Positions 10,036 to 64,000 are shown, counted from the stretch's first letter. The stretch is DNA of 64,000 nucleotides from a bacterium (GCA_021821305.1 JAKACP010000001.1:468349-532348), one strand, 5' to 3'. Notes: generated from the sequence alone by a model not told the origin. Translations and numbers: made by a program.

Positions 10036-10509
10036 ATGGCAAAGTTTCTGGATGGATGGAGGGTTCAGCCATGGGTGCCGCGGAGTGTCGCCTTCGTTCT
10101 CGGTACGCAGGGATATCATTACGCTATCCGCCAGGGGAGCATCGAGGATCTGGCGGCCGCGATCTTCTTCATACGCGAGGCCGAAAAACGCGGAGTGCGT
10201 ATCCGGAAAGATTTTCCCGGAGAGGCGCTCATCGTCCGCGAGATGATGGAGAGCGGGTACTACGGTCTCAAGCGGAGCGACTATACGGATCAGATCACGC
10301 TCTGGATGTCGCTTGCGGACGGGAAACGCCTGGTCGTGGAAGACCTGAGGCAGGCGATCGTGTTCGGTGCGGATCCCGATCTGACATTTTGGCCACAACT
10401 CGAGGAATCGATGACGGGAACGGCTTGCGAGATATTCGTCGGCGGGAAATCCTATCCCTTTTCGATAGCCAACCTCTGCTTTTTCCTGGAGCAGGCCAAA
10501 GCCGCATGA
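10036..10509 (+). CDS. hypothetical protein (about 157 aa)
   Basis: Start chosen at MAKFLDGWRVQPW behind SD aggaaggagaagg. TTGACG-17-TATTTT promoter-like element at about 9976-10004. No family recognised. Confidence 0.5.
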   Translation: MAKFLDGWRVQPWVPRSVAFVLGTQGYHYAIRQGSIEDLAAAIFFIREAEKRGVRIRKDFPGEALIVREMMESGYYGLKRSDYTDQITLWMSLADGKRLVVEDLRQAIVFGADPDLTFWPQLEESMTGTACEIFVGGKSYPFSIANLCFFLEQAKAA

Positions 10510-10556
10510 ACCTATGCGGCTTTTTTTCGCGCTTCACAAAGTCCGCGCCATCCGCT

Positions 10557-19874: not shown

Positions 19875-20065
19875 GTGAAAATCGTACAAACGTGAACCTA
19901 TCGGGATGGCGGACGATATTCGTCCCGTTGCTCGTGACCGTGGCCGCGATCGCGTTTTGGATGACATATTACGGTTCCATCGGTTGGTGGCCGTTCGTCC
20001 TCTTCGTCATCTGGGTGGTGCAATACACGCGATTTTCGCAGAGGCGGAGGTCTTCGGATGATTGA
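19871..20065 (+). CDS. small 2-TM membrane protein (64 aa), hypothetical; start overlaps R3 stop (ATGA)
   Basis: MSENRTNVNLSGWRTIFVPLLVTVAAIAFWMTYYGSIGWWPFVLFVIWVVQY…; translationally coupled geometry. Confidence 0.4.
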   Translation: MSENRTNVNLSGWRTIFVPLLVTVAAIAFWMTYYGSIGWWPFVLFVIWVVQYTRFSQRRRSSDD

Positions 20066-20160
20066 CATCGGTGTTTTTTCGGTTCCGGCTCGGGTGTATA
20101 CTGGAACGGTAACGAAGACGGTGCGCAGGTCGACGTGCCGAAAACGGAGGGAAATTAATC

Positions 20161-20694
20161 ATGAAGACAAATGATATGAAGAAATCTCTTATCTTGTCCG
20201 GTGTCCTCACGTTCGCCTTTATTTTCATCGGTGGAGTCATTGCGACTCCCGTGTCTGCGGGAAAACCGGATACGACCGGATTCAATCAGTTCGGATATAA
20301 TTATGGAGCCAGATTATTTAACGGATTGGCGGATGGCGTCGATAAGAATCTTGATGGAAAGGTGTGGGGCAGTCCGACGTATGCGAGTGACAGGGTTGTC
20401 ATGAAATGGAATGCGGCTTGGGATGCATGCAATGCTGCCGGGTACGATGATCCGGACGTCTGCGCCGGAGCCTGGACCGATAACGAATGGAACGGAAAAG
20501 GCAAGGATGGTTCGGGCGAGGTGTGGCACTATAAAATCATCTGGGTTGGGTCAGAAGCCGAACAGAGTCCTTATTGGAAAGATGGCGGGTATTCCGTCTG
20601 GGGAAATTATGAAGTCATAATGGACCAGGGTACGTTCGAGGGAGTGCATACGTGGTATGCGCATGGCATACCCAACGGATATGGGGCCGAATAA
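20161..20694 (+). CDS. secreted Trp-rich hypothetical protein (signal peptide)
   Basis: Signal peptide MKTNDMKKSLILSGVLTFAFIFIGGVIATPVSA; W/G/Y/D-rich mature part. GC about 48-50 percent, well below background; start of lower-GC island. Confidence 0.6.
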   Translation: MKTNDMKKSLILSGVLTFAFIFIGGVIATPVSAGKPDTTGFNQFGYNYGARLFNGLADGVDKNLDGKVWGSPTYASDRVVMKWNAAWDACNAAGYDDPDVCAGAWTDNEWNGKGKDGSGEVWHYKIIWVGSEAEQSPYWKDGGYSVWGNYEVIMDQGTFEGVHTWYAHGIPNGYGAE

Positions 20695-20847
20695 TTGCAG
20701 GTAACTGTCGAAAACAGCCATATTCTTGGCTGTTTTCGCTTTTTTATACGGAGGAAAATGATGCCACGCTATACTAATGGGCGGAGGGAGCACATCATTT
20801 CCCGACGGGTGGTGGCGACGGTTTTGAGGAAGACAGGGAGGTTGCCC

Positions 20848-20876
20848 TTGACAGAACCACAAAATTCTGCTATATT
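20848..20876 (+). promoter_or_regulatory. consensus sigma-70 promoter (TTGACA-17-TATATT) for the GT2 gene
   Basis: TTGACA 20848-20853, 17-nt spacer, TATATT 20871-20876. Lies inside the listed ORF 20695.., so the true GT2 start must be downstream. Confidence 0.55.
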
Positions 20877-20988
20877 CTCATGTCTGCGATTGCACAGGCA
20901 ATTGTATTTTTTTGGCTTATTTGATGCAGACCGCATCGGGTATTTATTCAATGGGCTCCCCAGGGGAGACTGGTACGGAAGCAACATT

Positions 20989-23283
20989 ATGAATGGTAAA
21001 ACCCTACATAAGAAAACACGTGGCACGCATGCTGTCCGTAAAAGACAATGGGGAACCGAGCGAGAGACTCTGCCGCTGTCCAATCTCCATGACCAACCTT
21101 CAAGCTACGCCGTCGTATTCAGCAGGCTTTCAATCGTCCTGACGATACTGTTTTGGGCGATGTATGTCATTTCGGTTGTTATCCGCCAACTTATCGATGG
21201 CCCCCAAAACTATCACTTTACTGTGGAAGCCTTCGGCTACCTTATCGTCGTAACCTTCCTGACTTTCTCGGCGTTGGTGTACTTGATCGCTCGACAGGGA
21301 GCGTTTCAGCGTTTCAGTGCGCATGTGCGTGTTCCGCGGGCCGTACTCGAGAGATATTTTTCTACTAACCAGCCATCGATTACCGTTCTGGTTCCCTCCT
21401 ATAGCGAGGAGACCCAGGTCATACGGAAGACGATGTTGTCCGCGGCGCTGCAGGAGTATCCCGATATCCGCGTGGTCCTTTTGCTCGATGACGATCCCGC
21501 GAGGGTTCGCCCAGAGGACGTTCCTCGGCTTGAAGCGACACGTGCGCTGAGCGGTGAAATCAAGGCTCTTCTCTCCGAACCGCACAAACGCTTCGATGAA
21601 GCGTTGGCGCGGTTTGAAGATGCTGATCTCAAGGATGAAGCATTGATCAGGAACTCTATTCCGGAAATAGCGCAACATTATAAATGGGCGGCGAAATGGT
21701 TGGAAAAGCTTGCGGAAAAGGAGGTGGCCGAAGATCATGTGGACATATTTTTTGCCGATCAGGTGCTGCGTGAGCTTGCTAAAGACCTACGTCTCGTCGG
21801 GGAAGCGCTGATCGCCTCGCATAAGGAAGGCGCGCGATTCTCTGCGGATCGCCTATTGCAGCTCTATCACCGGCTTGTGTGGATATTCAATGCGGACTTG
21901 GAAGTCTTCGAGCGGAAAAGATATGTTTCGTTGTCGCATGAGCCGAACAAGGCGATGAATCTCAATTCGTACATCGGACTCATGGGAAGCGCATATCGGC
22001 AGGAGCAGACACCCGATGGAATCGTCCTGGTACCGATGGCGCGCCGTAGAGGCGCGGACATGATCGTCCGTGACAGCGAGTTCATACTTACGTTGGATGC
22101 GGACTCCATTCTGTTGCGGGACTATTGTTCGCGTCTGGTCTACTTCCTGCAGCAGCCCGATAACGCGGATGTCGCGGTCGCACAGACGCCGTACTCCTCG
22201 TTCCGTGGCGCTCCTACGCGTATCGAACGGTTGTCCGGCGCCACGACCGACATCCAACACATCATTCACCAGGGAATGAGCCATTATGGCGCGACTTTTT
22301 GGGTGGGGGCCAATGCGGTCATACGAAAACGCGCCCTCGAGGATATAGTCGAGAAAGAATGGGTAGGCGGATTCGAGATAAAGAGATACGTACAGGATCG
22401 CACGGTCATAGAAGACACCGAGTCGAGCATCGACTTGGCGCTTCATGGTTGGAGACTGGTAAATTATCCGGAGCGCCTCAGCTATAGCGCGACACCTCCC
22501 GATTTCGGGTCCTTGGTCATACAGCGTCGTCGGTGGGCGAACGGCGGCCTCTTGATACTTCCGAAATTGTGGACGCTGCTTCGCGAACGCAAAAATCAGG
22601 GCAAGCCCGTATCGAAGGTCGAGTTCATGATCAGGCTCAACTACATGGCCTCTATCGCCTGGTCGAATCTTGGACTCGTGTTTCTTCTCATGTACCCTTA
22701 CGATGGACGGTTATTGAGCTCACTGGTTCTTCTTGCCGCGACACCCTACTTTTTGGCCATGGCTGCCGATTTGAAATACTGCCGCTACAACTATAGCGAC
22801 ATCGTCCGCATCTATGGTTTCAATCTGATACTGCTTCCGGTCAATATCGCTGGAACGCTTAAATCGCTGGAGCAAGCGTTGACTACTAAAAAAACACCGT
22901 TTGCTCGAACCCCGAAGGTCAAGGACCGGACAGCGGTGGCGTTGCCGTATGTCCTTTCGCCTCTGCTTATCGTCGGTTTCTCGTTCTTTACGTTGTGGCG
23001 CAATGTCGAAGGGGAGAATTGGGGGAATGCGGCATTCGCCGGATTCAATACCTTCGCGGCCACATGGGCTATCGTCTCGTATATCGGAATCAAAAATCTG
23101 TTTGTTGATGTGTGGCTCGGGTTGACGGACATGCTCTATGTCGAGACTGCTCCCGGCAAAGTGTCTCAAAAACCCGTCGAAACCGAATCCGAGTTCAATT
23201 GGAAGAGCGTGCTGTATCATGGAGAAGCAGGTGGCGTCGCACCCCATGAATCCATGAGCCGCGCGATGTTACATGAAAAGTAG
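20989..23283 (+). CDS. processive family-2 glycosyltransferase (cellulose/chitin-synthase-like beta-glycan synthase), polytopic membrane protein
   Basis: N-terminal TMs. GT-A core VLVPSYSEE…LLLDDDP…TLDADSILL (DxD)…IEDTES (TED)…QRRRWANGG (QxxRW). 4-5 C-terminal TMs. First in-frame ATG downstream of the promoter taken as start. Confidence 0.8.
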   Translation: MNGKTLHKKTRGTHAVRKRQWGTERETLPLSNLHDQPSSYAVVFSRLSIVLTILFWAMYVISVVIRQLIDGPQNYHFTVEAFGYLIVVTFLTFSALVYLIARQGAFQRFSAHVRVPRAVLERYFSTNQPSITVLVPSYSEETQVIRKTMLSAALQEYPDIRVVLLLDDDPARVRPEDVPRLEATRALSGEIKALLSEPHKRFDEALARFEDADLKDEALIRNSIPEIAQHYKWAAKWLEKLAEKEVAEDHVDIFFADQVLRELAKDLRLVGEALIASHKEGARFSADRLLQLYHRLVWIFNADLEVFERKRYVSLSHEPNKAMNLNSYIGLMGSAYRQEQTPDGIVLVPMARRRGADMIVRDSEFILTLDADSILLRDYCSRLVYFLQQPDNADVAVAQTPYSSFRGAPTRIERLSGATTDIQHIIHQGMSHYGATFWVGANAVIRKRALEDIVEKEWVGGFEIKRYVQDRTVIEDTESSIDLALHGWRLVNYPERLSYSATPPDFGSLVIQRRRWANGGLLILPKLWTLLRERKNQGKPVSKVEFMIRLNYMASIAWSNLGLVFLLMYPYDGRLLSSLVLLAATPYFLAMAADLKYCRYNYSDIVRIYGFNLILLPVNIAGTLKSLEQALTTKKTPFARTPKVKDRTAVALPYVLSPLLIVGFSFFTLWRNVEGENWGNAAFAGFNTFAATWAIVSYIGIKNLFVDVWLGLTDMLYVETAPGKVSQKPVETESEFNWKSVLYHGEAGGVAPHESMSRAMLHEK

Positions 23284-26099: not shown

Positions 26100-26172
26100 G
26101 GGCCTGTAGTTAAGTGGTACAACGCTGCATTCGCATTGCAGAGGCGGGAGTTCGATTCTCCCCAGGTCCACC
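26100..26172 (+). tRNA. tRNA-Ala (anticodon CGC)
   Basis: Manual fold: acceptor GGGCCTG/CAGGTCC with G3:U70 wobble (Ala identity); anticodon stem CTGCA/TGCAG; loop TTCGCAT (anticodon CGC); T-arm GGGAG-TTCGATT-CTCCC; discriminator A. CCA not fully encoded. Confidence 0.8.
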
Positions 26173-47368: not shown

Positions 47369-47854
47369 TCAGCTGTCCCTTCGGAGAAGTTTCGGGGAAA
47401 CGGAATAGATGTTCCCGTTTACCGTATCCAGAACCAGGACGCGTTTCGCGGGAATGGTAGTTCCGCCTCCTCGCCGGAACGCTACGATTGTTTTTGTATA
47501 CGACTCCGCTCGTGCGGCGAAGTCGGTGAACTCACAGGGATACATGCGGAGGGATGGTCTTCCTTCCTCGACCGCAAGGACCGAAAGAAGGTGGTCGTTC
47601 AAGGATGTCTCACTGAGGACGGAATGCGTAAATCGCATCCGATCGCCCGGATACAGACAATCCTCTTCCGCCTCCTCCGGAAGATCCGATTCAAGTACGA
47701 AGGTCTTGACCAGCGCTCCCGCGTTCGGTTTCTGCGGTATCACTTTGTTGAATGATTCGCACCAGGGAACATCCCCGAAAATCGATTCATCCCATTCCCT
47801 TGGTTCCTTGCTGTGAGGAAAAGGTTCATAGTACATCATCAGTGCGTGGCCCAT
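47369..47854 (-). CDS. hypothetical protein X1 (161 aa), expressed from duplicated promoter/leader cassette
   Basis: MGHALMMYYEPFPHSKEPREWDESIFGDVPWCESFNKVIPQKP… GC about 54 percent. Strong SD (aaggag) inside the conserved leader. Confidence 0.6.
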   Translation of the reverse strand: MGHALMMYYEPFPHSKEPREWDESIFGDVPWCESFNKVIPQKPNAGALVKTFVLESDLPEEAEEDCLYPGDRMRFTHSVLSETSLNDHLLSVLAVEEGRPSLRMYPCEFTDFAARAESYTKTIVAFRRGGGTTIPAKRVLVLDTVNGNIYSVSPKLLRRDS

Positions 47855-48011
47855 CTCGGTCTCCTTCTTTCAGATTGAAAGGTTCGCGCGTCTGCGCAAG
47901 GAGATACCCCGGAAATCCGGGGAACAGGCAGACACACGACAGAGACCCTCGCGGGCGCTTTTGTGAATGTACTCAGCTGACCATCGTACTCCAAAAAGGC
48001 TTTTTTGTCAA
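47855..48011 (-). promoter_or_regulatory. consensus promoter (TTGACA-17-TACGAT) plus about 120-nt structured 5-prime leader, copy A of a duplicated cassette
   Basis: Minus strand: TTGACA (48006-48011), 17-nt spacer, TACGAT (47983-47988). Leader has CCC-GCGA-GGG (GNRA) hairpin, CCCCGG-AUUU-CCGGGG hairpin, and CUCCUU…AAGGAG pairing that can sequester the SD. About 97 percent identical to 48609-48765. Confidence 0.55.
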
Positions 48012-48089
48012 GAGATTCGGATGTCTGTTCCCGGAATCCGAGTGAAAAAACAACCCCTGAGAGAATTTTCTCTTCAGGGGCTTCGTGTG

Positions 48090-48608
48090 TCAGACATGGA
48101 CCGATTGTTCCGGTTTCATGTTGTCGCTTCGTCTGCGGGCGAAGAACTTGGAAATGGCCGCGTTGTATGCGGCGAGCGTTGTTTCGTTGCTTTCCATTTC
48201 CTGCATCAAACGGTTGAACCGGACATCGAAATCGCACATGAGCACCGCTTTCGTCTGCAAGTCGAGAGACCGGCTCTGGGTGGAGCGGGATATCTCGCAT
48301 ATTATTTCCGCGAGGTCGATCTGGTTCCGTTGAAGCGCGAAAAGGACTTCCTTTCTGGCCACGCTCAGCTCCTCCGCTGATTTTCCCGCGGTCAGTTCCG
48401 ATATTTCGAGCTCGGATGCTTCCGATTCGAATTCTTGGAGCCAGTCCGAATCCGGATTCTCCTTCAGGGCGATCGTCTCGTCCGTCGGAGCTTTCTTGCC
48501 GAATAAGGAAATGGTGTGGACCACTTCCTGCAGGGATGTCGCGAGGAATCCGGCGAACCTGGGAAAAGAAAGGTGCTGATAGCGACCTGCTAGCTGGTGA
48601 AAGTTCAT
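48090..48608 (-). CDS. hypothetical protein X2 (172 aa), expressed from the second copy of the promoter/leader cassette
   Basis: MNFHQLAGRYQHLSFPRFAGFLATSLQEVVHTISLF… Not similar to X1. Confidence 0.55.
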   Translation of the reverse strand: MNFHQLAGRYQHLSFPRFAGFLATSLQEVVHTISLFGKKAPTDETIALKENPDSDWLQEFESEASELEISELTAGKSAEELSVARKEVLFALQRNQIDLAEIICEISRSTQSRSLDLQTKAVLMCDFDVRFNRLMQEMESNETTLAAYNAAISKFFARRRSDNMKPEQSVHV

Positions 48609-48765
48609 GGTTATCTCCTTCTTTCAGATTGAAAGGTTCGCGCGTCTGCGCAAGGAGATACCCCGGAAATCCGGGGAACAGGCAGACACACGACAGAGAC
48701 CCTCGCGGGCGCTTTTGTGAACGTACTCAACTTGCCATTATACTCCGAAATGGCTTTTTTGTCAA
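48609..48765 (-). promoter_or_regulatory. consensus promoter (TTGACA-17-TATAAT) plus structured 5-prime leader, copy B
   Basis: Minus strand: TTGACA (48760-48765), 17-nt spacer, TATAAT (48737-48742). Leader 48611-48712 is identical to copy A. Confidence 0.55.
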
Positions 48766-48916
48766 GATACCGGGGTAATCCGGATATCGTTGTCGAAAAT
48801 CCAAAAAAACGTTTCATTTTTGCCCCTCCTTCTGAAAAAAGGCTTTTCAGAGATTTCGATGCCTTCAGTATAGCATGAAAATGGCTTGTAAAAAACCCTG
48901 TCCGGACACCGAAACA

Positions 48917-49343: not shown

Positions 49344-49679
49344 CTATGCTTTGGCAAGCACCAGCGGTTCGCTGGAAAGTTCCTTGTAGAAGAAAAGGAT
49401 GATCGAAAATTGTGTGGATTCGCGTTCGGAGGGGAAGAACCCTTTGATGAAGACGTCTTTCCCGTGCCACATGTTCAATGTGGTGATGCCGAGGTGGTAC
49501 TTCGCATTTTGCAGGAACGTTCCGTACGACGAGGTGTATCCGCCGAACTTGCACGGAACCTTGTCTTTCGGATCCTGCTCCGAGGCATTCGCCTGGTTCA
49601 GATAGTGCTGCCTGAGGCTCTCGATGATCGTATCGAGATCGTCATCGGGGCAGGTCCATTCGATGATAGGTCGGTTCAT
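49344..49679 (-). CDS. hypothetical protein Y1 (111 aa)
   Basis: MNRPIIEWTCPDDDLDTIIESLRQHYLNQ…KYHLGITTLNMWHGKDVF… 12 nt downstream of Y2; same orientation. Confidence 0.5.
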   Translation of the reverse strand: MNRPIIEWTCPDDDLDTIIESLRQHYLNQANASEQDPKDKVPCKFGGYTSSYGTFLQNAKYHLGITTLNMWHGKDVFIKGFFPSERESTQFSIILFFYKELSSEPLVLAKA

Positions 49680-50030: not shown

Positions 50031-50083
50031 GGCTGTACCCTCCTTTTCTCCTCAAAATGTGAACGAACTTCAAAACTGCGTAT

Positions 50084-58216: not shown

Positions 58217-60163
<1,947 letters not shown>

Positions 60164-60170
60164 TGATTAA

Positions 60171-60195
60171 GCGGGGCCATTTTGGCCCCGCTTTT
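60171..60195 (+). terminator. rho-independent terminator after dnaK
   Basis: gcggggcca-ttt-tggccccgc-tttt. Confidence 0.6.
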
Positions 60196-60220
60196 GTATA
60201 AAATTTAAAAGTAAACTTTT

Positions 60221-60994
60221 ATGGGCAGGTCGTACAAAGCTGATTTGGTAGAAGCGAAAAAACAGAGTAAGGAATTGGAGTCCCTAATAGCGGAACTGAC
60301 AGATAGAAATACTACGTTGGAGGAAGAACTTGCTTCTGCGAAACAGGAGTCTATTGATAATAGATTGGCGTTTGAACAAAAATATTCTACCAAAGAGAGT
60401 GAGCTTTTTTCAGAAAAACAGGCCCTGGAAGTGGAGAAAGGAGTCTTGAAGTCTGAAAATGATTCCCTCAAAAACACCATTACTGAAAAACAGGGCGAGA
60501 TAAATAAAATGCAGGTGAAAAAAATGGCATCAGAGTATGGAAATCAGGAAGATGCGTATCTTGAAGATACTATCAAGTGGAGTAAATATCTCTTGCTAAG
60601 TGCACTGGTACTTTTTTTATCTACATTTTGGTCAGTAATCTTTGCTTCTGGCAAAGCATGGTACGAGCGATTTGAATTCTACCTGATTGATTTCATACTT
60701 ATAAGTGCTGTTTGGTTTTGCGCGTGGCAATATTCTTACTATGTAAAGCTACGAAACGATTACGCGAATAGAAAAACTTTAGCACAAACTTATCACAATA
60801 TACTCCTGAGTATTGGCGAATCCGAAGACCCTAATGAAAATGTAATAAATATTGAAACTAAAAAAGAATTCATGAAGAAAGCAACGGATGTATTGTGCGC
60901 ACCAAGTATTATTGAAGCGAAAGAGCCGCTTCTCTCAAAAGAGCTGTTAAAGAATGCTGGAAAGACTGCGGAGGTTATTATTAAAATGAAATAA
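60221..60994 (+). CDS. AT-rich hypothetical protein: N-terminal coiled coil, two TM helices, C-terminal domain (island gene 1)
   Basis: GC about 35-40 percent versus 65 percent background. Coiled coil residues about 1-100; TMs YLLLSALVLFLSTFWSVIFASG and FYLIDFILISAVWFCAWQYSYYV. Confidence 0.6.
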   Translation: MGRSYKADLVEAKKQSKELESLIAELTDRNTTLEEELASAKQESIDNRLAFEQKYSTKESELFSEKQALEVEKGVLKSENDSLKNTITEKQGEINKMQVKKMASEYGNQEDAYLEDTIKWSKYLLLSALVLFLSTFWSVIFASGKAWYERFEFYLIDFILISAVWFCAWQYSYYVKLRNDYANRKTLAQTYHNILLSIGESEDPNENVINIETKKEFMKKATDVLCAPSIIEAKEPLLSKELLKNAGKTAEVIIKMK

Positions 60995-61024
60995 GCACCA
61001 CAGAAAAATCCGGTGCTTTTTGAG
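60994..61024 (+). terminator. terminator-like hairpin after island gene 1
   Basis: agcacc-acagaaaaatcc-ggtgct-ttttg. Confidence 0.45.
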
Positions 61025-61054
61025 AAGAAGCAATTCCTCTTATTTAGTAATTCT

Positions 61055-61642
61055 ATGGGTATCAGTAAAGCTCATGAAGATTTGTTGGATAGTGCTGAAA
61101 ATCTTTCTCAAAATATCAATCTATTTAGAAATGGTAAAGCCTCTGCCTATAGAATTATTGCGACAATATTATGCTCGTTACTTATTAATGACAAAAAGAA
61201 CGGAGCCTTTCTGAAAAGACTGTTTCCGAAAATAAAACTCCATCCGGTACAGGAAAATAATATGTTAAACATATTAAAATCTATAGGAGTAGATGAAAAG
61301 CATATAAAATTTCTTCAAGACGGGACCCTGTCAGTTAGAGGCAATGGAGATTCTGAACTAATACTTTTCGATTTTTTTGCCAAGCCAATAGAGCTGGATT
61401 CATGGTTAAAGCAAAGAGTTGTATACATCGAAAGCCCCATATCAATAGAAGAACTTTTAAGATCAGTTCGAGATAAAGAGTCATCTCATTTGGATCCAGA
61501 CTACAATGATACGCTTGCAAATACTCGCTCAGTTTCATATGGGGAAAATGGCTGTCACAAGGAAATTATTATTTCGATTGGAGAATATATATTACAAATA
61601 CTAAATGGTATAATTAATTTCAAAAATCTTCCGGATAAATAA
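61055..61642 (+). CDS. AT-rich hypothetical soluble protein (island gene 2)
   Basis: MGISKAHEDLLDSAENLSQNINLFRNGKASAYRIIATILCSLLINDKKNGAF… The ORF opens at 61013; ATG 61055 chosen. Confidence 0.5.
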   Translation: MGISKAHEDLLDSAENLSQNINLFRNGKASAYRIIATILCSLLINDKKNGAFLKRLFPKIKLHPVQENNMLNILKSIGVDEKHIKFLQDGTLSVRGNGDSELILFDFFAKPIELDSWLKQRVVYIESPISIEELLRSVRDKESSHLDPDYNDTLANTRSVSYGENGCHKEIIISIGEYILQILNGIINFKNLPDK

Positions 61643-61680
61643 ATTTTTGAGAAGAAAAGGAATCAAGTACCTTTTTCAAT

Positions 61681-61708
61681 AAAAACTGATATACTCGGAG
61701 CATAAAAG
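61681..61708 (+). promoter_or_regulatory. repeated cassette-leading motif AAAAACTGATATACTCGGAGCATAAAAG (extended -10 TGaTATACT), copy 1
   Basis: 28/28 identical to 63476-63503. Preceded in both copies by GAG(A/C)AGAAAAGGA… 25 nt upstream of island gene 3. Confidence 0.4.
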
Positions 61709-61732
61709 TTCATTGGTTAAAGTATCAAAAAT

Positions 61733-62242
61733 ATGGATAAAATGCTGAGAAATTCAATTATATTAGGAATTGTGGTCGTATCTTTTTCTGTTGGATACTA
61801 TCTTGTTGTATTTTTGCCAGAGAAAGAGGCGACTAGAATAGCTCAACAACAGCAAGAAAAATTATTGGATGAGCAGAAGGAGAGCGAGCGAAAAAGCAAA
61901 GAAGTGGCAAAGGAGCTGGAAATAAAAACAGCAAAGTGCTTTGAGGACGCAAAGAAATTTCATGAAAATTATATTAAATCCATAGCAGGCTATTATCAAG
62001 AACCAAAATATAACTATAATCAGAAGCTAGGAAAGTGTTTATATAGTGGGGGGTATAATAAAAAAACAGTACTTTTATCTGATGTAAATTCGGACAAGCT
62101 AGTAAAAACTCCCGAATATTATTGGGAGCGAATGGTAAAAGATGTTTATACAAACGAAACCTTAATATCAGTCTATAACTTCCAAGATACGGAAAGTATC
62201 AAGGCTTATTGGGATGAGCATAGTAAGCTCATGGGTAACTAG
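61733..62242 (+). CDS. AT-rich hypothetical protein with N-terminal TM anchor and extracytoplasmic domain (island gene 3)
   Basis: MDKMLRNSIILGIVVVSFSVGYYLVVFL…, then charged coiled segment and a Cys-containing Tyr-rich domain. Confidence 0.55.
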   Translation: MDKMLRNSIILGIVVVSFSVGYYLVVFLPEKEATRIAQQQQEKLLDEQKESERKSKEVAKELEIKTAKCFEDAKKFHENYIKSIAGYYQEPKYNYNQKLGKCLYSGGYNKKTVLLSDVNSDKLVKTPEYYWERMVKDVYTNETLISVYNFQDTESIKAYWDEHSKLMGN

Positions 62243-62286
62243 AGCAGAAAAGGAGCCCCTCCAAAGGCGGGATCGACGGGACTGTC

Positions 62287-62305
62287 GACTTTCCGACAGA
62301 AGGGC
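62287..62305 (+). promoter_or_regulatory. partial copy of the GACTTTCCGACAG… motif (copy 4), within hairpin ctgtcg-actttc-cgacag
   Basis: GACTTTCCGACAGAAGGGC matches the first 13 nt of the 22-nt family and sits about 55 nt upstream of island gene 4. Confidence 0.3.
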
Positions 62306-62355
62306 ATATTTTCAAGTTACAAGCTATTTAAATTCTTAGATTGAGGTGTGAGATT

Positions 62356-62682
62356 ATGAAAAAATTTGAAGAAATGCATTTATTGGTTCGGTACCTTGGA
62401 TATCTTTTCGTTGCCAGCATATTTTCGGCTGTTATCTTTGTGCGACCGAGCGACTCTTTTGATGAGTTAAAAAATAGTTGGGGATTTTTCCATATGGTAT
62501 CCACGCTTACGATGGGCATGAGCCTGATCGATATGGTGAAAAGTAGATTTACAGAGAATAGCAAAGCGGATTCTGGCGACGACCGCTCATTTGCTTCGGA
62601 TCAGTTTGTCTATCTGGTTTCCGGAGTTTTCGTCTATATGATCACCTTCGGATTGATTGTATCTGTGCTATCTTTTCTGTAA
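62356..62682 (+). CDS. AT-rich hypothetical small membrane protein (island gene 4)
   Basis: MKKFEEMHLLVRYLGYLFVASIFSAVIFV…FVYLVSGVFVYMITFGLIVSVLSFL with 2-3 TMs. The ORF opens at 62341. Confidence 0.45.
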   Translation: MKKFEEMHLLVRYLGYLFVASIFSAVIFVRPSDSFDELKNSWGFFHMVSTLTMGMSLIDMVKSRFTENSKADSGDDRSFASDQFVYLVSGVFVYMITFGLIVSVLSFL

Positions 62683-62739
62683 GGATATCGGAGAATCCTC
62701 CAATTCCAGATTGTTCTTGGAACTTATAGGTCTAAAGAG

Positions 62740-63441
62740 ATGGAAAGTGCAGGAATTGATTTTGTGAAAATCGACCTCGATGGAGCGGAGATCGACCTTC
62801 ATATACATCGCGCTGACAGTGATGCGGTATTGATTATGTATCCCGGTGCCGACGGGGACATCGATGGCTACAATGGAAAATACCGGAAAATCGCCGAACT
62901 CATCCGGTCGCGAAATATCGCGACGGTCGTCCGGATGGACAACCGATATTGTCCTGTCGCCCGTTTGCCATATCAGGAGTCGATGATCGTAAGGCTGGCG
63001 CATGTCATTGAGCACATCTATGACAATGCCGAACGGATAGCGCTGAGGAAAGAGGTCGGTCTATATCTCGCTGGCGTTTCCGCTGGGGCAAGTAGTGTAG
63101 CTGCGGTTCTGGATGATTTTCCGCTTGTGAAGAAAGTTTTGCTCGTCGCGCCTGCCGATAGCGCAGGTCGGGAAAATATGGAGCGCGGACTGCGGAATTA
63201 TAGGGGTGAGTTGTTTCTTGCAGCCGGAGAGGATGACGAAATCGGGGCACTTGACACCGCGCGGTTTTGCCATGACATATCTGGATTCGCTATGAGGAAA
63301 GAAATAGGGATCATTCCCGAGTGCGGCCACCAGTTCCGCGGTGAAAAAAATGGAAGGATTTTGGCGAACGCCTATCTATGGGCTTTTGCTGGCGAGGGAA
63401 ATTTTCCGAGTCACGAGGGTGGCATTGCTTTGTATGAGTAA
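62740..63441 (+). CDS. alpha/beta-hydrolase fold protein (esterase/dienelactone-hydrolase-like)
   Basis: Nucleophile elbow GVSAGAS (GxSxG); conserved His near the C-terminus (ECGHQF). GC about 50 percent, intermediate. Confidence 0.65.
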   Translation: MESAGIDFVKIDLDGAEIDLHIHRADSDAVLIMYPGADGDIDGYNGKYRKIAELIRSRNIATVVRMDNRYCPVARLPYQESMIVRLAHVIEHIYDNAERIALRKEVGLYLAGVSAGASSVAAVLDDFPLVKKVLLVAPADSAGRENMERGLRNYRGELFLAAGEDDEIGALDTARFCHDISGFAMRKEIGIIPECGHQFRGEKNGRILANAYLWAFAGEGNFPSHEGGIALYE

Positions 63442-63475
63442 TATGAGCAGAAAAGGAGCTAGATACCCTTTTAGG

Positions 63476-63503
63476 AAAAACTGATATACTCGGAGCATAA
63501 AAG
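63476..63503 (+). promoter_or_regulatory. repeated cassette-leading motif AAAAACTGATATACTCGGAGCATAAAAG, copy 2
   Basis: Identical to 61681-61708; 24 nt upstream of a small membrane ORF. Confidence 0.4.
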
Positions 63504-63526
63504 CGTATAAGTATTAAACAGCCATT

Positions 63527-63694
63527 ATGGACAAGATAAAGATCGAGAATCACAGCTTCACCGGATTCTCGTGGTTCGCCGGATGGCTCTTCACGATCGG
63601 ATTTCTCAAGCTGACATTCTTGAAGGGTGTCCTCGCGCTCGTGCTCTGGCCATACTTCATCGGACAGTACATAAGCGCCGTCGTCGCGGACTGA
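63527..63694 (+). CDS. small membrane ORF (55 aa), hypothetical
   Basis: MDKIKIENHSFTGFSWFAGWLFTIGFLKLTFLKGVLALVLWPYFIGQYISAVVAD. Below the ORF-track length cutoff; follows the repeated promoter motif. Confidence 0.3.
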   Translation: MDKIKIENHSFTGFSWFAGWLFTIGFLKLTFLKGVLALVLWPYFIGQYISAVVAD

Positions 63695-63833
63695 GGCAAG
63701 CGGGAAAGCTACACTCGGGCCATGGCGGCCTCGATCGCGATGAGCTACTGTCGAGCGAATACGCCGCCCGGGTATTACTGCTTCATCACCGACTGTAGTC
63801 CGACCTGACAACGGCGCGGGGGAACCCTTTGAG

Positions 63834-63862
63834 CCGGGTATCGAATGATACCCGGTTTTTTT
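63834..63862 (+). terminator. rho-independent terminator
   Basis: ccgggtatc-gaat-gatacccgg-ttttttt. Confidence 0.5.
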
Positions 63863-63942
63863 ATTTGATGAATGCAGGTACTCATCACGGGGTCGATCCG
63901 CCGGATGTAGGCTGATGCCGTAGTGAGGTGTATCATGACAGC

Positions 63943-64000
63943 ATGACATCGCAACGATACTTTCTTTTCATACTCGCCGCCATCGCATTCCCCCTGGTAA
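63943..64000 (+). CDS. partial CDS (5-prime end) of a hydrophobic protein running off the window end
   Basis: ATG 63943 then MTSQRYFLFILAAIAFPLV…; open to the window edge. Confidence 0.2.
   Translation, partial: MTSQRYFLFILAAIAFPLV

Follow-up and report, generated by a model that had tools for sequence, protein, structure and literature searches.

The locus analysed here raises the question of how a run of small, AT-rich genes came to lie directly behind the chaperone gene dnaK in a bacterium of the candidate phyla radiation (CPR). The source genome belongs to Moranbacteria (contig of 826 kb), and the window, by which we mean the whole stretch of 64,000 nucleotides (nt) under analysis (GCA_021821305.1, JAKACP010000001.1:468349-532348), holds the AT-rich island near its 3' end, between dnaK and a gene for a peptide of 55 amino acids (aa). 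Our preferred explanation, to which we assign a probability of roughly 0.55, is that the region is a lineage-wide hotspot for accessory genes, with junction elements derived from repetitive extragenic palindromes (REPs) and their REP-associated tyrosine transposases (RAYTs), and that its genes are exchanged by recombination in the conserved flanks and junctions. The horizontal origin of the cargo is well supported, and a role of this cargo in defence or in mobile elements is plausible, by association only.

Composition and integrity of the island

Composition was profiled in 300-nt windows at the locus and per kb elsewhere. The GC content falls from 0.53–0.62 over dnaK to 0.39 at 60150-60449, reaches its minimum of 0.287 at 61500-61799, and recovers through 0.41–0.44 (62250-62849) and 0.49–0.53 (62700-63449) to 0.56 from 63600. 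It is 0.29–0.42 between 60.2 and 62.7 kb, against a background of ~0.58–0.62, and ranges from 0.49 to 0.66 per kb in the remainder of the window (mostly 0.55–0.64). An earlier description made from the DNA alone (the sequence-only reading) had given a fall from about 65 to about 35–40 percent; the drop is indeed sharp, and the background from which it starts is lower than the 65 percent proposed. All six open reading frames (ORFs) of that reading were found, and its membrane segments agree with our hydropathy prediction. GC content at third codon positions (GC3) cleanly divides native genes (dnaK, 0.84; hsp20, 0.76; the 55-aa peptide, 0.79) from foreign ones (0.37, 0.27, 0.34, 0.46 and 0.53 for genes 1 to 5, respectively), bearing out the view that the island is foreign in composition.

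An abrupt shift in composition at a terminator might also suggest that dnaK was joined to unrelated AT-rich DNA during assembly. An independent Logan assembly of sequencing run SRR13304626 is 100% identical over 58985-64000, across dnaK, the island and the downstream genes, and continues downstream, which makes a chimeric assembly very unlikely. The same architecture is also present in more than 15 other assemblies from other studies, and a chimera is by far the least probable of the explanations considered here.

The features of the locus are as follows:

60171-60195, + strand: intrinsic terminator of dnaK and left edge of the variable slot, a GC-rich, perfectly paired hairpin (GCGGGGCC-ATTTT-GGCCCCGC) with a T run behind it
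60221-60994, + strand: gene 1, 257 aa, coiled coil with two transmembrane (TM) helices, of a CPR family of ~230–260 aa that appears distantly related to DUF6161
60996-61029, + strand: hairpin AGCACC-N12-GGTGCT with T run (TTTTT), then TTTTTGAGAAGAA, as read from the sequence
61055-61642, + strand: gene 2, 195 aa, soluble, of a widespread unnamed family; mixed alpha/beta fold with a helical part that is weakly HEPN-like
61649-61708, + strand: element A1, upstream of gene 3, with a degenerate REP-like motif at 61652-61676
61687-61695, + strand: extended -10 of A1, TGATATACT, with ATAAAAG 6 nt onward
61733-62242, + strand: gene 3, 169 aa, N-terminal TM anchor and Cys/Tyr-rich C-terminal domain; 15 homologues
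62242-62275, + strand: element B, a conserved junction element (GAGCAGAAAAGG, then CCCCTCCAAAGGCGGG) with the left half of the REP motif only
62356-62682, + strand: gene 4, 108 aa, small membrane protein by ORF and hydropathy, an orphan
62740-63441, + strand: gene 5, 233 aa, alpha/beta-hydrolase-like (GVSAG motif), of intermediate GC (GC3 as above)
63445-63503, + strand: element A2, upstream of the 55-aa gene, with a more decayed REP-like motif and the same 28-nt promoter module as A1
63527-63694, + strand: 55-aa peptide with two TM segments, native conserved core gene (GC3, conservation) and right flank
63831-63858: terminator past the last ORF, from the terminator scan

Terminator hairpins had been proposed after gene 1 and after the last ORF. 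The hairpin sequence after gene 1 is present and was missed by the terminator scan, and the last terminator lies 137 nt beyond the stop codon of the peptide.

A conserved slot with variable content

The 55-aa peptide, which has two TM segments by hydropathy, belongs to a 19-member cluster at 90% identity and has relatives in the loci of at least 80 species (Moranbacteria and other Patescibacteria). It had been counted among the island's cargo; its GC3 and wide conservation identify it instead as the native right flank, and the island is the present filling of a conserved slot. Related loci were collected by a one-genome-per-species scan with this peptide, which returned at least 80 loci. The nearest of them carry the labels Candidatus Moranbacteria or Moraniibacteriota, and the others are from other Patescibacteria, including some bins with doubtful automatic labels.

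In 14 of the peptide loci, dnaK lies upstream on the same strand, at a dnaK-to-peptide interval of 1.5–6.7 kb, and every one of these intervals includes a 300-nt window of GC 0.28–0.38 at a locus GC of 0.43–0.58. ORF calling and all-against-all BLASTP showed that the first one to four ORFs past the dnaK terminator are AT-rich, on the + strand and unrelated between species, and that the genes farther downstream of the slot are common to the related loci. A DUF1189-like gene follows dnaK in four species, where the AT-rich ORFs come after it. In a third Moranbacteria genome (L203), the dnaK terminator is identical and precedes a homologue of gene 1 (57% identity); the island there is 3.9 kb long, at GC 0.32–0.40. 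With L203 added to the 14 loci, a post-dnaK slot with species-specific AT-rich genes between the same flanks, as expected of a hotspot, is found in at least 15 related species.

Similarity between related genomes ends immediately past the dnaK terminator. For example, a 2-kb block downstream of the slot (L007:8676-10674, L011:8673-10674) is common to loci L007 and L011 at 96.5% nucleotide identity, compared with only 82% for dnaK, a sign of recent recombination or of transfer of DNA next to the core genes. Between the terminator and this block, L007 carries a 178-aa AT-rich ORF and L011 a 258-aa ORF that is a 58% identical homologue of gene 1, and similarity restarts within a short motif (GAGCAGAAAAATGGAGTCAAGTACCTTTTTTAAAG in L011, a decayed version in L007). 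In L003 and L005, a KAP NTPase is exchanged for an HNH protein at the same place, with the left breakpoint just past the terminator. These pairs, together with L203, uphold the earlier description of the module as cassette-like: its content differs at the same site in related genomes. Besides the KAP NTPase and the HNH protein, the cargo of the relatives' slots includes a weak HEPN match, and most of the other proteins are orphans. The KAP-family P-loop NTPase (452 aa, L003:1982-3340) matched the PADLOC models QatA (E 3e-19) and PifA (E 3e-15) and was the sole PADLOC match among the slot proteins of the relatives.

Boundary repeats and their link to a transposase family

Two kinds of repeat had been noted at the cassette boundaries. 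One, a 28-mer, is exact at 61681 and 63476, just as described, and occurs nowhere else in the window (0.00 chance matches expected). The other, beginning with GAG(A/C), is also present, 1–3 nt away from the positions first given (61648, 62245 and 63447): its 13-mer GAGMAGAAAAGGA is exact at 61649, 62242 and 63445 (0.23 expected by chance). Likeness among the boundary copies extends over ~60 nt. A further partial copy (GAGAAGAA) lies past the gene 1 hairpin at 61022, and the 13-mer TTTTTGAGAAGAA, the start of the boundary motif, is exact at 61017 and 61644. The motif or its left half lies within 0–28 nt of the gene end for four of the five island genes, and A1 and A2 form direct repeats 1795 nt apart that bracket gene 3, element B, gene 4 and gene 5. 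Alignment of the boundary copies gave a 25-nt consensus (CAGAAAAGGGGTCAAGTACCTTTTT), from which the A1 copy departs at three positions and the A2 copy at six. At six mismatches or fewer, this consensus was found 10 times in 1.2 Mb of related loci plus the window, always just 3' of a stop codon, and 0 times in five shuffles; only two such copies lie in the window.

The boundary motif GAG(A/C)AGAAAAGG reads as a degenerate copy of a 21-nt REP-like element, AAAAGGGGTCA(A/G)GTACCTTTT. An exact scan of metagenome contigs with AAAAGGNNTCARGTACCTTTT returned at least 120 stretches with at least 154 copies, on contigs of GC 0.29–0.73. Among the matches listed, many copies form inverted pairs 7–60 nt apart, and some pairs are 700–770 nt apart. 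The wider pairs enclose a 226-aa ORF (MARIPR ... KKGT) that matches Pfam Y1_Tnp (IS200-like; E 3e-18 and 6e-20), with REP copies at, e.g., 1512 (+) and 2258 (-) in L010, and 1053 (+) and 1782 (-) in L124. RAYT homologues adjoin the motif in at least 15 loci, in an arrangement like that described by Bertels and Rainey for REPs and RAYTs (PMC3116915, PMC5581495). Some contigs (L087, L133) hold three or four copies, many REP copies are preceded by stuttered partial copies of their 5' half, and the consensus is predicted to form a hairpin (-9.5 kcal/mol, z -2.7). By this comparison, the boundary motifs would be degenerate REP-like elements of a RAYT (Y1 transposase) family.

The spacing downstream of the motif may explain the second repeat. 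In RAYT genes, the 5' REP is followed by TGATATA(A/C)T, exactly 6 nt and ATG, a leaderless geometry. Both A elements of the window, L004 and L203 have the order REP, 11 nt, TGATATACT, 6 nt and ATAAA and lack a transposase gene behind it, such that the 28-mer matches the RAYT promoter in geometry, with ATA in place of ATG. This suggests that the repeated extended -10 module began as a REP-linked control region of a transposase gene that is no longer there. Modules of type A precede gene 3, the 55-aa gene, a 102-aa membrane protein (L004) and a 240-aa ORF (L203), and A1 is 82% identical to L203:7625-7681. The proposal of a repeated promoter-like module leading the cassettes is strengthened by its recurrence in other species before unrelated genes. 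The proposal that the island has a promoter grammar of its own found no support, as the motifs correspond to REP-like elements that occur across many unrelated metagenome contigs.

Element B has the core AG(C/A)AGAAAAG-N5-CC(C/T)CCA(A/G)AG(G/A)CGG in the window (62242-62275), in L002 (1731-1765) and in L203 (9716-9750), whose AT-rich island has its right edge there. A hairpin follows it in the window and L203, with no clear one in L002. The order of dnaK terminator, slot 1, A or REP, slot 2 and B is common to the three loci, with different genes in the slots:

Window: slot 1, genes 1 and 2; slot 2, gene 3
L203: slot 1, gene 1 homologue and 172-aa ORF; slot 2, ORFs of 240 and 296 aa
L002: slot 1, 218-aa AT-rich ORF; slot 2, 102-aa protein

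This common skeleton is the strongest evidence for a putative exchange of cassettes at conserved intergenic elements, and would fit enzyme targets and mere homology patches alike.

Other searches with the boundary elements gave little. The string of the REP-like motif was not found in the literature searched, and the exact motif was absent from the viral contigs scanned. Rfam returned only a tRNA-Ala, with nothing at the A or B elements (gathering thresholds over the whole window; E ≤5 on 60–64 kb). We rejected two one-mismatch matches at 49387 and 50041, an inverted pair ~650 nt apart as around the RAYT gene, since they are coding or ribosome-binding-site sequence (the latter at 50041) with no RAYT homologue. 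The boundary-motif hairpin was also rejected as a classical intrinsic terminator, given that its T run lies within the stem and that the stem is AT-rich.

Two observations concern the REP family itself. The 21-nt sequence AAAAGG(G/T)GTCA(G/A)GTACCTTTT is almost invariant across contigs of GC 0.29–0.73 among the matches listed (loci L083-L202, e.g., L098:3125-3173, L133:4063-5049 and L087), a cross-lineage constancy that is unexpected for REPs and unlike published REPIN-RAYT systems. Also unlike REP/RAYT systems, the stop codon of the 226-aa RAYT sits within the 3' REP (..AAAGGTACCTGA = KGT*). A separate observation concerns the genes behind the A-type elements: gene 3 (61733), the 55-aa peptide (63527) and the 102-aa protein (L002:1408, L004:3562) all start with MDK(I/M) (ATGGAYAARAT) directly downstream of such an element, which could reflect a shared 5' junction or chance.

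Cargo genes

Gene 1 has 44 homologues (32–58% identity), all from CPR-type sources. Members of the family share a variable N-terminal coiled coil, the motif ELKKLAxAYxEQE, two TM helices (residues 122-144 and 151-169 of gene 1 by hydropathy) and a C-terminal KLRNDYANRKTLAQSFHNIL ... ATDVLCAPS. The AlphaFold2 (AF2) model is all helical (pLDDT 86), with a helical hairpin at the two TM helices. A likeness to SLATT proteins had been suggested from the architecture; it found no support, with no SLATT model matching gene 1 at E ≤1 or any of the 44 family members at E ≤0.01. Pfam DUF6161 was matched at E ≤0.01 by 7 of the 44 homologues, three at 27.4–32.6 bits (gathering cut-off, 27 bits); gene 1 itself gave no DUF6161 match and is below all Pfam cut-offs. 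Searches with PDB sequence profiles returned no match for the family. Homologues of gene 1 lie directly past dnaK in L011 and L203, and elsewhere the neighbourhoods are of a different kind: one relative is found among Fic, methyltransferase, PvuII-like, LexA-methyltransferase, HicA and DUF559 genes, another immediately 5' of a type III restriction-modification pair and the gene of a T5orf172 protein, and a third behind a helix-turn-helix (HTH) gene within an AT-rich island. No SMODS, SLOG, CBASS or TIR signalling genes were present in six neighbourhoods of family members. We regard the family as CPR-specific in the sources found, probably distantly related to DUF6161, and as a candidate new component of conflict systems.

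An exhaustive HMMER search with gene 2 gave 153 cluster representatives, each of ~190 aa. W117 and H145 are invariant in the family, and K141 and D147 nearly so. Within R139-x5-H145, the histidine is present in 60 of 60 family members and the arginine in 11 of 60, and the surrounding motif DKE(G/A)AH.D is conserved. Fusions to TPR repeats, a UDG domain or an N-terminal segment of two TM helices occur, and gene 2 itself has no TM segment by hydropathy. The AF2 model is confident (pLDDT 93, pTM 0.90) and contains inserted beta strands; neither Foldseek against solved structures nor PDB sequence profiles gave a significant match, and the likeness to HEPN is weak. One relative lies between SieB and AAA_21/RloB genes. 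Genes 1 and 2 had no relatives in viral contigs by pattern scan, and gene 2 and its relative P0080 had no tblastn match in GenBank phages or PLSDB plasmids, where the island DNA likewise went unmatched.

Matches to gene 3, which has one TM segment (residues 7-30 by hydropathy), numbered 16 including its own product (P0227, 100%). Identity to the 15 homologues is 46–77%, and the one homologue with a source name is from Moranbacteria, to which the family seems confined. For two homologues, the surrounding mobile elements also encode a tyrosine integrase, large serine recombinases, a Rep protein, restriction-modification systems and ThsB_TIR (Thoeris TIR). As a side observation, one AT-rich element with a gene 3 homologue (L218:4874-9951 and 10248-10517; tyrosine integrase, EcoRII-type restriction-modification and large serine recombinase) adjoins groES, so that foreign DNA lies next to a chaperone gene here too.

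Gene 4, with hydrophobic N- and C-terminal segments, forms a singleton cluster at 90% identity and matched no family in PADLOC, PHROGs, NCBIfam or Pfam. For gene 5, 15 matches were obtained including its own product (P0063, 100%), i.e., 14 homologues at 39–73% identity, two of them with Pfam Hydrolase_4 (PF12146). Gene 5 itself is below the Pfam cut-offs; its GVSAG nucleophile elbow (GxSxG type) and a weak NCBIfam acetyl-esterase match (E 9e-4) indicate an alpha/beta hydrolase. One homologue in another context has FtsK/SpoIIIE-like and Macro-domain genes among its neighbours.

Origin of the island and alternative explanations

We suggest that the space just 3' of the dnaK terminator in Moranbacteria has been refilled repeatedly with AT-rich genes (GC ~0.30–0.40) from a mobile gene pool shared by CPR bacteria. 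The five genes of the window would fall into four blocks, one of gene 1 plus its hairpin, one each of genes 2 and 3, and one of genes 4 and 5 together, that meet at short conserved intergenic elements. The A elements would be degenerate REP-like copies of the RAYT family joined to the extended -10 promoter of the transposase, whose start codon has gone. Their most likely present role is that of portable promoters for gene 3 and the native 55-aa gene, with a predicted start ~7 nt past TATACT; the hairpin within them may also terminate or stabilise the message from upstream. Cassettes were most likely exchanged after DNA uptake, by recombination in the dnaK terminator, in A and B and in the downstream core genes, rather than by a recombinase encoded in the island. 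The cargo most likely serves in biological conflict: gene 1 may be a single-gene, membrane-acting protein of the exclusion or abortive-infection type (DUF6161-like family), gene 2 an effector, or a sensor-coupled domain, built on a HEPN-like helical core, and gene 3 a surface protein that usually rides on integrative elements.

Several results weigh against this explanation or parts of it. No RAYT homologue is encoded in the window, the degenerate motif copies there have weak predicted folds (-4.3 kcal/mol, z -0.3 to -0.7), and the REP motif is missing at some swap boundaries (e.g., the right breakpoint of L003/L005), so it is not required for exchange. Having no -35 box, the A elements were not picked up by a generic sigma-70 scan. 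The occurrence of gene 1 at the same slot in three genomes (54–58% identity) could mean vertical descent with fast divergence rather than transfer. Genes 1 and 2 were rejected as an obligate two-gene system, as the gene 1 homologues in L011 and L203 have no neighbouring gene 2 homologue. The six window proteins had no significant match in PADLOC (none at E ≤1), PHROGs, NCBIfam or Pfam. The putative defence role draws on neighbourhoods in other genomes. From the sequence-only view of a horizontally acquired defence, toxin or phage-derived membrane module, we retain its foreign and cassette-like nature; the defence part owes its plausibility to the neighbours of gene 1 and gene 3 relatives and to the KAP NTPase of L003.

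The REP-like elements might alternatively be recombination sites, at which a RAYT-type Y1 transposase encoded elsewhere cuts and joins single-stranded hairpins of the GAG(A/C)AGAAAAGG junctions, such that the island is an integron-like array run by a transposase. This would suit the closeness of the motif or its left half to most gene ends, the right breakpoint of L007/L011 within the motif, the direct repeats A1 and A2 around genes 3 to 5, the stuttered 5'-half copies upstream of many REPs, and the appearance of B, which looks like a left half-REP fused to other sequence and is kept in three genomes. The missing RAYT and the swaps without the motif argue against it, and REPs are known past stop codons for unrelated reasons, such as mRNA stability, and can act as passive homology patches. 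To our knowledge, no RAYT-mobilised gene cassette has been described so far, and we consider transposase-catalysed exchange unlikely. More doubtful still is its fullest form, in which REP-like elements of a multi-phylum RAYT family are both junction sites and portable promoters for cassette exchange at the dnaK locus in CPR bacteria, the terminator/A/B scaffold forms an integron-like capture platform run in trans by a domesticated Y1 transposase, and half-REPs such as B are footprints of cleavage and joining.

A single integrative element that entered beside dnaK through its own integrase or serine recombinase, since lost, could have left the island as a decayed remnant. Elements that bear gene 3 homologues do encode a tyrosine integrase, an excisionase-like HTH protein and large serine recombinases (one of these elements adjoins groES), and the FtsK/SpoIIIE-like and Macro-domain neighbours of the gene 5 homologue point in the same direction. 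In line with the sequence-only reading, which saw no integrase or transposase, neither was present in the dnaK operon, in the island itself or over the 10 kb downstream of it, and none of 15 related loci, all with AT-rich cargo, has a recombinase in its slot. A search for attachment (att) sites found no direct repeats at the island edges besides the internal A repeats, the sole tRNA gene of the window (tRNA-Ala) lies at 26.1 kb, and the GC3 of the blocks differs (0.27–0.37 vs 0.46–0.53), which suggests several acquisition events. We judge this possibility about as unlikely as exchange by a transposase, and favour recombination in the flanks and junction elements over both. Less probable again is that the genes are native and vertically inherited, with low GC and fast divergence arising from relaxed or diversifying selection on, e.g., surface or membrane proteins. 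The shared post-dnaK position of gene 1 homologues in three genomes would agree with this, as would relatives of genes 3 and 5 at 46–77% identity, mostly in the same lineage. However, the gap between a GC3 of 0.27–0.37 and the 0.76–0.84 of native neighbours is too large for drift within a genome, slot content is non-homologous in close relatives (L007/L011, L003/L005), and genes 1 and 3 have homologues in AT-rich islands elsewhere and in other phyla-level groups (e.g., Liptonbacteria).

Comparison with known systems

Hotspots between core genes are known from the integration hotspots of E. coli, the hotspots of P2/P4 satellites and the core defence hotspots of Pseudomonas. The dnaK slot resembles chromosomal hotspots in its fixed site between conserved genes, its foreign composition and its varying content in close relatives, and resembles defence hotspots in the occasional recognisable defence protein in relatives' slots (KAP NTPase matching QatA/PifA, HNH protein, HEPN-like protein). 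It differs from them in occurring in a CPR lineage (genome of roughly 0.8 Mb or more), in cargo that consists mostly of single small orphan genes on the same strand, in the lack of an integrase, satellite or prophage backbone, and in junctions with REP-like elements and a common A ... B skeleton. The locus is therefore a known kind of genome feature, an accessory-gene hotspot, that is unusual in the REP-like repeats and portable promoter at its boundaries.

Short imperfect palindromes past stop codons, with inverted copies flanking a single Y1_Tnp gene, are shared with REP/REPIN-RAYT systems (PMC3116915, PMC5581495), as are the frequent inverted doublets 7–60 nt apart. These systems are described as mostly vertically inherited (PMC3116915, PMC5581495). 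Unlike them, the window has just two or three degenerate singlet copies in 64 kb, all within the island, and the hotspot REP is coupled to a promoter with no transposase gene behind it.

As in integron cassettes, small promoter-poor ORFs of variable content are arrayed on one strand, each followed by a short, partly palindromic conserved element. Unlike integrons, the island has no IntI integrase or attI and has promoters inside the array, and its junction element measures ~22–30 nt (compared with 57–141 nt for attC) and lacks RYYYAAC / GTTRRRY cores; the locus is not a member of the integron family. It differs from classical integrase-type islands in the absence of an integrase and of edge direct repeats, and in having its only tRNA gene, tRNA-Ala, at 26100.

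Gene 1 shares the coiled coil and two TM helices with membrane proteins of the SieB/SLATT type and with DUF6161, and its relatives occur in defence-type neighbourhoods and in some cases reach the DUF6161 threshold; unlike SieB/SLATT proteins, it matches no SLATT or SieB model and has no nucleotide-signalling partner genes nearby. The R139-x5-H145 of gene 2, with its invariant histidine, recalls HEPN toxins and RNases (HEPN/MNT, AbiV, Csm6), from which the family is set apart by the infrequent arginine, the inserted beta strands of the model and the absence of a significant Foldseek or profile match.

In the tiny genomes of CPR bacteria, few defence or mobile elements have been recognised, and the conserved slot shows where a flexible gene pool sits; the order of dnaK, slot and 55-aa gene offers a simple anchor for mining this pool across hundreds of genomes. 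The DUF6161-like family of gene 1 with two TM helices and the gene 2 family (more than 150 clusters, and a confident fold with no match among solved structures) are candidate new components of conflict systems. The REP-plus-promoter module suggests that a transposase control region may be reused to express captured genes, and RAYT/REP systems would gain a role in gene capture if REPs were indeed exchange sites.

Other features of the window

A 154-nt direct repeat is present at 47860-48013 and 48614-48767, with copies that are 95% identical and each lie just upstream, on the - strand, of an ORF (47369-47854 and 48090-48608). The repeat has no Rfam match; on the - strand it contains a near-consensus promoter (TTGACA-N17-TATAAT) and a leader of ~110 nt with a CCCCGGATTTCCGGGG hairpin. 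A second dip in GC content (0.49 versus ~0.6) lies at 20001-21000 and coincides with a high GC skew of 0.23.

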